From: Escherichia coli
Lineage (GTDB): Bacteria; Pseudomonadota; Gammaproteobacteria; Enterobacterales; Enterobacteriaceae
NCBI RefSeq assembly: GCF_050920415.1
Contig: NZ_CP169309.1
Length of the DNA stretch: 64,000 bases
Reading direction: 5' to 3' (one strand)
The translations under genes were made by a program, and so were the position numbers. Positions 4,878-45,586 of the stretch are shown piece after piece; the stretch's first letter is position 1, and every line of letters starts with the position of its first letter. The notes below the pieces were generated by a model. That model ran no database searches. It saw only the letters and a program-made list of their open reading frames with translations, and was not told the origin of the DNA.

Positions 4878-6638
4878 ATGACGCAAACATTTATCCCCGG
4901 CAAAGATGCCGCTCTGGAAGATTCCATCGCTCGCTTCCAGCAAAAACTTTCAGACCTCGGTTTTCAGATTGAAGAGGCCTCCTGGCTGAATCCCGTGCCT
5001 AACGTCTGGTCTGTACATATTCGCGACAAAGAGTGCGCACTGTGTTTTACCAACGGTAAAGGCGCAACCAAAAAAGCGGCGCTGGCTTCTGCACTCGGTG
5101 AATATTTCGAGCGTCTGTCTACCAACTACTTTTTTGCTGACTTCTGGCTGGGCGAAACCATCGCCAACGGTCCATTCGTGCATTATCCCAACGAAAAATG
5201 GTTCCCACTGACCGAAAACGACGATGTACCAGAAGGGCTGCTCGATGACCGTCTGCGCGCATTTTACGATCCGGAGAATGAACTGACCGGCAGCATGCTG
5301 ATTGACCTACAATCTGGTAACGAAGATCGTGGTATTTGCGGTCTGCCGTTTACGCGCCAGTCCGACAATCAGATCGTTTATATTCCGATGAATATCATTG
5401 GTAACCTGTACGTTTCTAACGGTATGTCCGCTGGCAATACCCGAAACGAAGCACGCGTCCAGGGGTTGTCCGAAGTTTTCGAACGCTACGTGAAAAACCG
5501 GATTATTGCTGAAAGCATCAGCCTGCCAGAGATCCCGGCAGACGTGCTGGCGCGTTATCCAGCGGTGGTTGAAGCGATCGAAACACTGGAAGCGGAAGGT
5601 TTCCCGATCTTCGCTTATGATGCCTCGCTTGGCGGTCAATATCCGGTGATCTGCGTGGTACTGTTCAATCCAGCTAACGGTACCTGCTTTGCATCCTTCG
5701 GTGCACATCCTGATTTTGGCGTTGCACTGGAACGTACCGTGACCGAGTTGCTGCAAGGCCGCGGTCTGAAAGATTTGGATGTGTTTACTCCGCCAACCTT
5801 CGATGATGAAGAAGTCGCTGAACATACTAACCTCGAAACGCACTTTATCGATTCCAGCGGTTTAATCTCCTGGGACCTATTCAAGCAGGATGCTGATTAT
5901 CCGTTTGTGGACTGGAGCTTCTCAGGCACCACGGAAGAAGAGTTTGCTACGCTGATGGCTATCTTCAACAAAGAAGATAAAGAAGTTTATATTGCCGATT
6001 ACGAGCATCTGGGCGTTTATGCTTGCCGCATTATCGTGCCTGGCATGTCCGATATTTATCCGGCAGAAGATCTGTGGCTGGCGAATAACAGCATGGGCAG
6101 CCATTTACGTGAAACGATTCTTTCACTCCCAGGCAGCGAGTGGGAAAAAGAAGATTACCTGAACCTCATCGAGCAACTGGATGAAGAAGGTTTTGATGAC
6201 TTTACTCGCGTGCGTGAGCTGTTGGGTCTGGCGACCGGGTCGGATAACGGTTGGTACACCCTGCGTATCGGAGAATTAAAAGCCATGCTGGCGCTGGCTG
6301 GTGGCGATCTGGAACAGGCTCTGGTCTGGACCGAATGGACGATGGAGTTTAACTCATCAGTATTTAATCCGGAACGCGCCAACTATTATCGCTGTCTGCA
6401 AACGTTGTTATTACTGGCACAGGAAGAAGACCGCCAACCACTGCAATATCTGAATGCCTTCGTTCGTATGTATGGCGCAGATGCCGTAGAAGCCGCCAGT
6501 GCGGCAATGAGCGGTGAATCGGCGTTTTATGGCTTGCAACCCGTAGATAGCGATCTGCACGCGTTTGCTGCACATCAGTCGTTGTTGAAGGCCTACGAAA
6601 AGCTGCAGCGCGCCAAAGCAGCATTCTGGGCAAAATAA
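4878..6638 (+). CDS. ycaO: YcaO-family ATP-dependent protein (ribosomal protein S12 methylthiolation accessory factor)
   Basis: ORF 4845..6638; ATG at 4878 gives MTQTFIPGKDAALEDSIARFQQKL; position upstream of focA. Confidence 0.9.
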   Translation: MTQTFIPGKDAALEDSIARFQQKLSDLGFQIEEASWLNPVPNVWSVHIRDKECALCFTNGKGATKKAALASALGEYFERLSTNYFFADFWLGETIANGPFVHYPNEKWFPLTENDDVPEGLLDDRLRAFYDPENELTGSMLIDLQSGNEDRGICGLPFTRQSDNQIVYIPMNIIGNLYVSNGMSAGNTRNEARVQGLSEVFERYVKNRIIAESISLPEIPADVLARYPAVVEAIETLEAEGFPIFAYDASLGGQYPVICVVLFNPANGTCFASFGAHPDFGVALERTVTELLQGRGLKDLDVFTPPTFDDEEVAEHTNLETHFIDSSGLISWDLFKQDADYPFVDWSFSGTTEEEFATLMAIFNKEDKEVYIADYEHLGVYACRIIVPGMSDIYPAEDLWLANNSMGSHLRETILSLPGSEWEKEDYLNLIEQLDEEGFDDFTRVRELLGLATGSDNGWYTLRIGELKAMLALAGGDLEQALVWTEWTMEFNSSVFNPERANYYRCLQTLLLLAQEEDRQPLQYLNAFVRMYGADAVEAASAAMSGESAFYGLQPVDSDLHAFAAHQSLLKAYEKLQRAKAAFWAK

Positions 6639-6969
6639 AATCAAATAGCCTACGCAATGTAGGCTTAATGATTCGTCTGAGTTATATTACGGGGCGTTTT
6701 TTTAATGCCCCGCTTTACATATATTTGCATTAATAAAATAATTGTAATTATAAAGTTAAATATCGGTAATTTGTATTTAATAAATACGATCGATATTGTT
6801 ACTTTATTCGCCTGGTGCTCCCTTTTAATTAACTGTTTTAGCGGAGGATGCGGAAAAAATTCAACTCATTTGTTAATTTTTAAAATTTATTTTTATTTGG
6901 ATAATCAAATATTTACTCCGTATTTGCATAAAAACCATGCGAGTTACGGGCCTATAAGCCAGGCGAGAT

Positions 6970-6984
6970 ATGATCTATATCAAT
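6970..6984 (+). promoter_or_regulatory. candidate FNR box (aTGATctatATCAA) with a TATAAT -10 hexamer at 6993-6998, focA-pflB promoter region
   Basis: Near-match to TTGAT-N4-ATCAA in the AT-rich region upstream of focA; the focA-pflB operon is a known FNR/ArcA/IHF-controlled multi-promoter region. Confidence 0.45.
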
Positions 6985-7043
6985 TTCTCATCTATAATGC
7001 TTTGTTAGTATCTCGTCGCCGACTTAATAAAGAGAGAGTTAGT

Positions 7044-7901
7044 GTGAAAGCTGACAACCCTTTTGATCTTTTACTTCCTGCAGCAATGGCCAAAGTGGCC
7101 GAAGAGGCAGGTGTCTATAAAGCAACGAAACATCCGCTTAAGACTTTCTATCTGGCGATTACCGCCGGTGTTTTCATCTCAATCGCATTCGTCTTCTATA
7201 TCACAGCAACCACTGGCACAGGAACAATGCCCTTCGGCATGGCAAAACTGGTTGGCGGCATTTGCTTCTCTCTGGGGCTGATTCTTTGTGTTGTCTGCGG
7301 AGCCGATCTCTTTACTTCCACAGTGTTGATTGTTGTTGCTAAGGCGAGTGGGCGCATCACCTGGGGTCAGTTGGCGAAAAACTGGCTAAATGTCTATTTT
7401 GGCAACCTGGTCGGCGCACTGCTGTTTGTACTTTTAATGTGGCTTTCCGGCGAGTATATGACCGCGAATGGTCAATGGGGACTAAACGTCCTACAAACCG
7501 CCGACCACAAAGTGCACCATACTTTTATTGAGGCCGTCTGTCTTGGTATCCTGGCAAACCTGATGGTATGTCTGGCAGTATGGATGAGTTATTCTGGCCG
7601 CAGCCTGATGGATAAAGCGTTCATTATGGTGCTGCCGGTCGCGATGTTTGTTGCCAGCGGTTTTGAGCACAGTATCGCAAACATGTTTATGATCCCGATG
7701 GGTATTGTAATCCGCGACTTCGCATCTCCGGAATTCTGGACCGCTGTCGGTTCTGCACCGGAAAATTTTTCTCACCTGACCGTGATGAACTTCATCACTG
7801 ATAACCTGATTCCGGTTACGATCGGTAATATTATCGGCGGTGGTTTGTTGGTTGGGTTGACATACTGGGTCATTTACCTGCGTGAAAACGATCACCATTA
7901 A
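7044..7901 (+). CDS. focA: formate channel FocA
   Basis: GTG start at 7044 gives MKADNPFDLLLPAAMAKVAEEAG; the track ORF 6705..7901 is an upstream read-through of the AT-rich leader. Confidence 0.9.
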   Translation: MKADNPFDLLLPAAMAKVAEEAGVYKATKHPLKTFYLAITAGVFISIAFVFYITATTGTGTMPFGMAKLVGGICFSLGLILCVVCGADLFTSTVLIVVAKASGRITWGQLAKNWLNVYFGNLVGALLFVLLMWLSGEYMTANGQWGLNVLQTADHKVHHTFIEAVCLGILANLMVCLAVWMSYSGRSLMDKAFIMVLPVAMFVASGFEHSIANMFMIPMGIVIRDFASPEFWTAVGSAPENFSHLTVMNFITDNLIPVTIGNIIGGGLLVGLTYWVIYLRENDHH

Positions 7902-10429: not shown

Positions 10430-11170
10430 ATGTCAGTTATTGGTCGCATTCACTCCTTTGAATCCTGTGGAACCGTAGACGGCCCGGGTATTCGCTTTAT
10501 CACCTTTTTCCAGGGCTGCCTGATGCGCTGCCTGTATTGTCATAACCGCGACACCTGGGACACGCATGGCGGTAAAGAAGTTACCGTTGAAGATTTGATG
10601 AAGGAAGTGGTGACCTATCGCCACTTTATGAACGCTTCCGGCGGCGGCGTTACCGCATCCGGCGGTGAAGCAATCCTGCAAGCTGAGTTTGTTCGTGACT
10701 GGTTCCGCGCCTGCAAAAAAGAAGGCATTCATACCTGTCTGGATACCAACGGTTTTGTTCGTCGTTACGATCCGGTGATTGATGAACTGCTGGAAGTAAC
10801 CGACCTGGTAATGCTCGATCTCAAACAGATGAACGACGAGATCCACCAAAATCTGGTTGGAGTTTCCAACCACCGCACGCTGGAGTTTGCTAAATATCTG
10901 GCGAATAAAAATGTGAAGGTGTGGATCCGCTACGTTGTTGTCCCAGGCTGGTCTGACGATGACGATTCAGCGCATCGCCTCGGTGAATTTACCCGTGATA
11001 TGGGCAACGTTGAGAAAATCGAGCTTCTCCCCTACCACGAGCTGGGCAAACACAAATGGGTGGCGATGGGTGAAGAATACAAACTTGATGGTGTTAAACC
11101 ACCGAAGAAAGAGACCATGGAACGCGTGAAAGGCATTCTTGAGCAGTACGGTCATAAGGTAATGTTCTAA
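10430..11170 (+). CDS. pflA: pyruvate formate-lyase activating enzyme (radical SAM)
   Basis: ATG at 10430 gives [39 protein letters not shown] (CxxxCxxC cluster). Confidence 0.95.
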
Positions 11171-30543: not shown

Positions 30544-30665
30544 TTTTACAAATCAGTAACAAAAGTAAAGAAGGCGACACCATGCGACTATGGGTCGCCT
30601 TTATTTTTTCCCCGTTGTAACATTGCTCTGCAAATAATTCTGATAACTCACCTGCTAAGCGTGCA

Positions 30666-45161: not shown

Positions 45162-45586
45162 ATCCCCTCCAGAAATATGTGACTTATCCTTTACGCTGGC
45201 AGTATAACGGGAAAGGCCTTGCTAATACGTGATGACATCACATTTAAGCATGGCAAATGTCTGAAAAATGAGCGAATAATCGCGTTATACTCCCTCTTGC
45301 TGATAAGTCTGCAAAAACAACAAAATCAAATAATTAGCATGATAAATTATTTTTTATTACGCCTAAAGGATTAAATCTTTTGCTTGCACTACACTGTCAA
45401 TCAGACAAATGACTATATGGGGCAACCCGCTGTTGCCCTAAATCAAATTTACTGGATTTATTTATCTGGTGAATGACTCGCCTTCGTTTTTAAAATAGCC
45501 GCGCATTATTTCCGTCGTCACTTTTTTACGACGACCCTATAAAACGACCATATTTTTCACAGGGTCAATTTTTAATTGAGGTGGAT

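Follow-up and report, generated by a model that had tools for sequence, protein, structure and literature searches.

The ycaO-focA spacer and the start of focA

Positions 6639-7043 of the window, by which we mean the entire 64-kb stretch of Escherichia coli DNA that was analysed, make up the 405-bp intergenic region between ycaO, whose stop codon ends at 6638, and focA, which begins at 7044; ycaP, pflB and pflA are also carried in the window. A first-pass annotation, made from the letters alone, had described about 400 bp of AT-rich DNA ahead of focA, and both the description and its coordinates are exact: the spacer has a G+C content of 31.1% versus 50.2% window-wide, with a minimum of 25% across 6700-6899. 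Its assignment of this DNA to the control of focA-pflB is likewise borne out by RefSeq, in which the gene order ycaO-focA-pflB-pflA is found both in an identical E. coli locus and in K-12 MG1655; in the identical locus ycaO ends 1 base before the spacer and focA starts 1 base after it. Among complete E. coli genomes the spacer is present at an identity of at least 99% in 5348 E. coli records and in 5423 of 5426 genomes, and no feature is annotated beneath the copies. Three of the 5426 genomes lack the intergenic region, at least one E. coli genome carries it twice, and five copies lie in plasmid-typed records of the E. coli genome collection. K-12 MG1655 differs from the spacer by three SNPs (window 6674, 6754 and 6815) and shows no difference from 6816 through the start codon; a further SNP at 7082 is synonymous in focA (GCA for GCT). 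An Rfam comparison of the region returned a single match, to a trypanosome rRNA model, which lies below threshold and is due to chance.

For comparison across species, 120 related loci were retrieved from other species by a degenerate pattern inside focA, and 104 of them are distinct. YcaO is encoded upstream of focA in 93 related loci, and the spacer measures 380-410 bp in 59. Spacer alignments were made with these 59 Enterobacteriaceae intergenic regions, while the region proximal to focA was compared in all 104 distinct loci. Published K-12 coordinates (x) were converted to window positions as 7044 + (953689 - x). The features discussed below are collected in the table.

Table. Features between ycaO and focA, in window coordinates, with the evidence for each
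Feature	Position	Strand	Evidence
Hairpin 1 downstream of the ycaO stop, 7-bp stem AGCCUAC/GUAGGCU	6647-6665	+	fold -12.8 kcal/mol, z -5.1
Hairpin 2, probable ycaO terminator, CGGGGCGUU-loop-AAUGCCCCG	6690-6712	+	fold -15.7 kcal/mol, z -4.3
Spurious 113 codons ahead of focA, in its reading frame	6705-7043	+	ORF list, structure alignment, cross-species frames
Candidate P7 hexamer pair TTTACA-17-AATAAT, predicted start ~6749	6714-6742	+	promoter scan
Nine NarL heptamers, starting at 6728, 6744, 6761, 6779, 6788, 6862, 6913, 6977 and 6994	6728-7000	+	database list
ArcA-P site, four direct repeats	6731-6784	+	published site, ChIP peak, matrix
IS1/IS5 insertion zone	6832-6870		published at -212, -203, -201 and -174 from the focA start
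A/T tract 6874-6897, then perfect predicted IHF core AATCAAATATTTA at 6903-6915	6874-6915	+	consensus match, conservation
Conserved G+C-rich block GGGCCTATAAGCCAGGCGAGAT	6948-6969	+	Enterobacteriaceae conservation
FNR box ATGAT-CTAT-ATCAA, centre 6976.5	6970-6983	+	matrix, published site and ChIP-seq, conservation
TATAAT, -10 of the overlapping promoter with start A7007	6993-6998	+	published TSS, conservation
TGtTAGTAT, extended -10 of the class II FNR-dependent promoter with start 7017/7018	7003-7011	+	published -40.5, geometry, conservation
Start 7007: -10 TATAAT (6993-6998) at -14 to -9, FNR box centre at -30.5	7007		
Start 7018: -10 TAGTAT (7006-7011) at -12 to -7, TG at 7003-7004, FNR box centre at -41.5	7018		
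Ribosome-binding site (GAGAGAG purine run 7032-7038) and GTG start codon (7044-7046)	7032-7046	+	RefSeq, conservation
focA, formate channel, 285 aa	7044-7901	+	ORF list, RefSeq, structure alignment

A mechanical search for open reading frames calls focA not from 7044 but as an ORF of 398 aa (6705-7901), which consists of FocA (285 aa) preceded by 113 unconserved codons. The first-pass annotation had dismissed this ORF as false and placed the start of focA at the GTG at 7044, and we reach the same result on both counts. The RefSeq start is 7044, and the FocA structure 3KCU, also 285 aa, aligns to ORF residues 114-398 only, with Met where the GTG encodes Val. The start codon is GTG in 93 of the 104 distinct related loci, and AAGAGAGAGTTAGTGTG, the block that contains the true ribosome-binding site and start codon, is invariant in the 59 species.

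An N-terminally extended FocA made from ATG 6705 in E. coli would draw on a frame that is ATG-initiated and open over 398 codons, most of which could be spanned by a transcript from an upstream promoter. The additional residues, however, have no counterpart in the solved FocA structures, and stops interrupt the frame in every other species, so that the long open frame upstream of the GTG is limited to E. coli (121 codons here versus 2-72 in other species among the 104 distinct loci). Moreover, ATG 6705 lies within the loop of the probable ycaO terminator hairpin (see below), the 15 nt that precede it (CGGGGCGTTTTTTTA) contain no purine-rich ribosome-binding site, and both mapped proximal start sites are located 3' of it. 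By inspection, the conserved blocks of the spacer are short motifs and show no sign of a coding pattern. We therefore consider an extended FocA vanishingly improbable; the longer ORF has arisen by chance, as a frame left open in AT-rich sequence, and for annotation it should not be called, with GTG 7044 taken as the start of focA. Three further small ORFs in the spacer, of 21 codons, are unsupported as well.

The GTG start seems to have misled annotators elsewhere, as illustrated by the Klebsiella pneumoniae focA orthologue KPN_00932, which is given as 816 nt versus 858 nt in E. coli (PMC3415461). KPN_00932 is 42 nt, or 14 codons, shorter than E. coli focA, and its start was probably set at the internal Met15 because the true start is a GTG. 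False upstream extensions of the same kind are seen for two neighbouring genes: the mechanical ycaO ORF runs for 597 aa from TTG 4845 and the RefSeq gene begins at window 4878, and the mechanical pflA ORF runs for 255 aa from ATG 10403 and the RefSeq gene begins at 10430. The GTG start codon itself is part of the loop in a small hairpin (7038-7055, GUUAGU-GUGAAA-GCUGAC, -6.1 kcal/mol) whose sequence is invariant across species and whose fold is not better than that of shuffled sequences (z -1.7).

The FNR box and two overlapping proximal promoters

The near-consensus pair of FNR half-sites that had been reported at 6970-6984 is found exactly there. These positions read ATGATCTATATCAAT, within which the FNR box proper is the 14-mer ATGATCTATATCAA, matching TTGAT-N4-ATCAA at 9 of 10 half-site positions. 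Since a consensus search that tolerates up to one mismatch is not informative, returning 4 matches in the 64-kb window versus 2.9 expected, we built a matrix from 62 ChIP-positive sites (Myers et al. 2013, PMC3688515, Table S6) from which the focA site was left out. The position weight matrix scan that the first-pass annotation had proposed thereby gave a clear answer: the box scores 16.6 bits, compared to a training median of 15.1, and is the top match of the window; when the spacer was shuffled with its dinucleotides preserved, 1 of 2000 sequences attained this score.

Upon coordinate conversion, the published predicted FNR site TTGATATAGATCAT at K-12 953750 (PMC3688515) coincides exactly with window 6983 to 6970, and the FNR ChIP-seq peaks are centred at K-12 953741 and 953746, no more than 15 bp away (PMC3688515); the box is thus an experimentally occupied site. 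The same study classes focA-pflB as a directly FNR-activated operon with the site at -40.5 (Myers et al. 2013, PMC3688515), and focA has a ratio of 0.145 in the published expression table for K-12, in which the sequence is identical. The box is also deeply conserved, being found at the aligned position in all 59 Enterobacteriaceae spacers and in the same location in each of the 104 distinct proximal regions, where it reads ATGATC-N3-(A/G)TCAA. Even the departure of the left half-site from the consensus (ATGAT rather than TTGAT) is invariant in the 104 loci. Invariant half-sites around a freely varying spacer are the pattern expected of a protein-binding palindrome.

This evidence also bears on whether the box could be unrelated to FNR control, either as a palindrome that AT-rich DNA produces by chance or as a CRP site. 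The consensus matches with up to one mismatch are indeed no commoner than expected by chance, and the box with its flanks agrees with the CRP consensus TGTGA-N6-TCACA at 7 of its 10 core positions. Against this stand the matrix score with its rarity among shuffles, the conservation of the half-sites across 104 loci in which the spacer varies, and above all the dependence of expression on FNR and the ChIP-seq peak that was published for FNR at this site; the published ChIP-seq already refutes such a reading, and we accord it next to no probability. With a box matching at 9 of 10 positions, a centre at -40.5/-41.5 and published FNR occupancy and dependence in vivo (K-12), the site belongs to class II of FNR-activated promoters.

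According to the FNR paper, the focA ChIP peak covers two FNR sites. With our matrix, no second site above 4 bits was detected in the E. coli spacer, and no other FNR position is common to more than 9 of the 59 species. A weak FNR-like site at 6851, ahead of a conserved TTCAAC-17-TAAAAT pair, was considered and dropped, as its score is -10.9 bits in E. coli and, in the Klebsiella group, no better than 5-7 bits. Elsewhere in the window, FNR matrix matches of 10.5-14.7 bits lie at 45433, 15808, 47700, 38621 and 20724, and the last of these (TTGTTCGGTATCAA) sits where K-12 coordinates place the dmsA promoter.

The first-pass annotation had listed a TATAAT hexamer together with the FNR box. Its coordinates are exact and the hexamer is unique in the region, but its mere occurrence is uninformative, as 70% of spacer shuffles contain one. 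That it is real is indicated by its conservation (at least 95% in the 59 species) and by a published start site 9 nt downstream: Kim et al. 2012 (PMC3415461) mapped a TSS to K-12 953726, with a 37-nt leader, and the flanking sequence that they give terminates at window A7007. In aerobic TSS sets, 7007 is the only start upstream of focA. The -40.5 spacing of Myers et al. (PMC3688515), on the other hand, puts the start at window 7017. Set against mapped start sites, a comparison that the first-pass annotation had itself suggested, its box positions hold, for the published start at 7007 and the derived start at 7017 both fit them.

Do the two features then form one promoter, in which the FNR box activates transcription with TATAAT as the -10? 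This is the simplest reading of two features listed together, and it can point to a perfect hexamer that is conserved in Enterobacteriaceae and to the fact that the only aerobic TSS sits behind it. The geometry speaks against it: the centre of TATAAT is only 19 bp from that of the FNR box (6976.5), and a start at 7007 puts the FNR centre at -30.5, outside the range of -41.5 ± 4 that holds for 19 of 23 FNR-activated promoters, whereas the published table sets the site at -40.5 from its TSS (PMC3688515). Conservation speaks against it as well. In 104 of 104 loci, Photobacterium included, the box is followed at a constant distance by a -10-like hexamer that begins with TA and ends with T, and the TG of the extended -10 is likewise present in every one, whereas TATAAT or TATACT occurs in 90 of the 104 and is lost in Photobacterium. 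Since the TG and the -10-like hexamer at class II spacing are kept more widely than TATAAT, we conclude that the FNR-dependent promoter uses TGtTAGTAT, and a single promoter appears very unlikely. On this cross-species comparison, which provides a clean sequence-based argument for TGtTAGTAT over the more eye-catching TATAAT, the latter does not serve as the -10 for activation by FNR and belongs to an overlapping promoter. Both features of the first-pass annotation are therefore real, but they belong to two overlapping promoters and not to one. The position of the -35 element for the 7007 start (ATGATC, 6970-6975) falls within the FNR box, and bound FNR should thus favour the downstream start. 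We take the overlapping promoters at 7017/7018 and 7007 to be P6 and P6A of Sawers and co-workers.

Upstream regulatory elements, the probable ycaO terminator and candidates for the distal promoter

The ArcA and IHF elements that had been anticipated for this region were recovered by matrix and consensus scans. Park et al. 2013 (PMC3798270) report a four-repeat ArcA site at K-12 953949-954002 with a ChIP peak at 953965, which correspond to window 6731-6784 and ~6768, respectively. In a matrix made from the other 114 boxes of Park et al., with the focA site excluded from training, the 18-bp core box TTGTAATTATAAAGTTAA (6742-6759) scores 17.0 bits, a value that only the cydD box exceeds in the window, and a second in-phase repeat match of 10.1 bits follows 11 bp away (6753-6770). 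The SNP at 6754 (A for G in K-12) falls within the third ArcA repeat and leaves the matrix score practically unchanged, at 17.0 bits versus 16.7 bits for the K-12 allele. TGTAAT and GTTAA of the ArcA site are conserved in the spacer alignments. The site overlaps or sits downstream of two upstream promoter candidates, an unusual position for an activator, and the ArcA paper calls its mechanism unknown. A second, weaker ArcA ChIP peak (focA1, K-12 953546, window ~7187) falls inside focA, where no ArcA site is predicted. The best ArcA match of the window, TTGTTACTGATTTGTAAA (30545-30562, minus strand, 20.1 bits), is identical to the published cydD box.

Closer to the promoters, an A/T tract is followed by a predicted IHF core that matches WATCAANNNNTTR perfectly; 5% of spacer shuffles have such a core. 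The tract is invariant in the alignments and is kept, together with ATCAA/TTA of the core, also in Serratia and Yersinia. IHF presumably binds the focA-pflB region in vitro. Its occupancy in vivo is unsupported here, because no IHF ChIP enrichment overlaps the FNR site (PMC3688515). For NarL, nine heptamers are listed for focA (PMC2718512), each of which occurs once in the region, at the start given in the table. Just upstream of the FNR box, the G+C-rich block conserved in Enterobacteriaceae is not conserved in the more distant genera Serratia and Yersinia; it holds an imperfect palindrome, GGCCTATAAGCC.

The stretch from the ArcA site to the IHF core contains a zone in which adaptation of E. 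coli to the mouse gut repeatedly selected for IS1 and IS5 insertions, with a rise in anaerobic focA expression (PMC5094792). As the region is a recurrent target of adaptive IS insertions, a map of its elements is useful for reading such mutations.

At the distal end of the spacer, two hairpins follow the ycaO stop codon. The first is followed by a T-rich run on the minus strand, where a terminator scan finds a terminator-like match, and it is not conserved beyond Escherichia and Citrobacter. The second has a conserved stem with compensatory changes in its inner part and is followed by T runs in 15 genera. Its tail in E. coli, CTTTACATATATTT, is a poor T run that the terminator scan does not call, whereas the tails in other genera are clean. 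This second hairpin is likely the intrinsic terminator of ycaO.

Two published sigma-70 ChIP peaks, at K-12 953695 and 954032 and both approximately six-fold higher without oxygen, map to window ~7038 and ~6701. The peak at ~6701 implies a promoter at the distal end of the spacer as well, presumably the one named P7. Candidates for it are three hexamer pairs. TTTACA-17-AATAAT is the best sigma-70-like pair (10 of 12 positions) and the sole scan match in the region, and it is poorly conserved in other genera; TAGGCT-17-TATATT (6660-6688) is weaker and has a conserved -10; the third is the TTCAAC-17-TAAAAT pair mentioned above. Directly before the terminator stem, TATATTAC (6683-6689) resembles a -10 element, is invariant in most genera and shows stronger conservation than do the loop and tail of the terminator. 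It is a long shot, though conceivable, that TATATTAC serves as the -10 of a promoter starting at ~6695 inside the 5' arm of the stem, whose transcripts, unable to form the hairpin, would read past the terminator at which those of ycaO end; such a promoter, which may simply be the known P7, would account for both the anaerobic sigma-70 peak at ~6701 and the conserved flank of the terminator.

Proposed control of the operon and comparison with known systems

We are nearly certain that window 6639-7043 corresponds to the known region from which E. coli controls transcription of focA-pflB, the operon for the formate channel and pyruvate formate-lyase, a region that is well studied and oxygen-responsive and in which nothing new is present. 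Without oxygen, FNR occupies 6970-6983, at -40.5/-41.5 from the 7017/7018 start, as data published for an identical sequence show, and the geometry suggests that it activates, in the class II manner, a promoter whose -35 is poor and whose -10 is the extended TGtTAGTAT. An overlapping promoter with TATAAT provides the start at A7007 that is seen in aerobic mapping, and FNR bound at the box would be expected to hinder this start in favour of 7017/7018. Further upstream, the ArcA-P site, an IHF-type bend predicted at 6903-6915 and the NarL heptamers would contribute, as would a second area bound by sigma-70 near the probable ycaO terminator, the expected location of P7. Combined, these elements would give the anaerobic, nitrate-repressible expression described for focA-pflB, with translation of focA beginning at GTG 7044 behind its purine-rich ribosome-binding site.

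The closest known system is focA-pflB of K-12 MG1655 itself, which has the same gene order and a 405-bp spacer, with identical FNR box, -10 elements of both promoters, IHF core, leader and GTG start; it differs by the three distal SNPs, of which that at 6754 shifts the ArcA score by 0.3 bit. With other class II FNR promoters (narG, dmsA, nirB, yfiD) the region shares a 14-bp box of the TTGAT-N4-ATCAA type at -40.5/-41.5 that replaces a usable -35. Here, by contrast, the left half-site reads ATGAT, the -10 is of the extended type, and 10 bp upstream there is another, nested promoter whose -35 position falls within the box. The yfiD (grcA) promoter likewise drives a gene related to pyruvate formate-lyase and is under the control of both FNR (-40.5) and ArcA, but it has two strong FNR sites in the FNR table versus the one identified here, and its ArcA site lies at -10/+22, whereas that of focA is located approximately 230-290 bp upstream of the FNR-dependent start.
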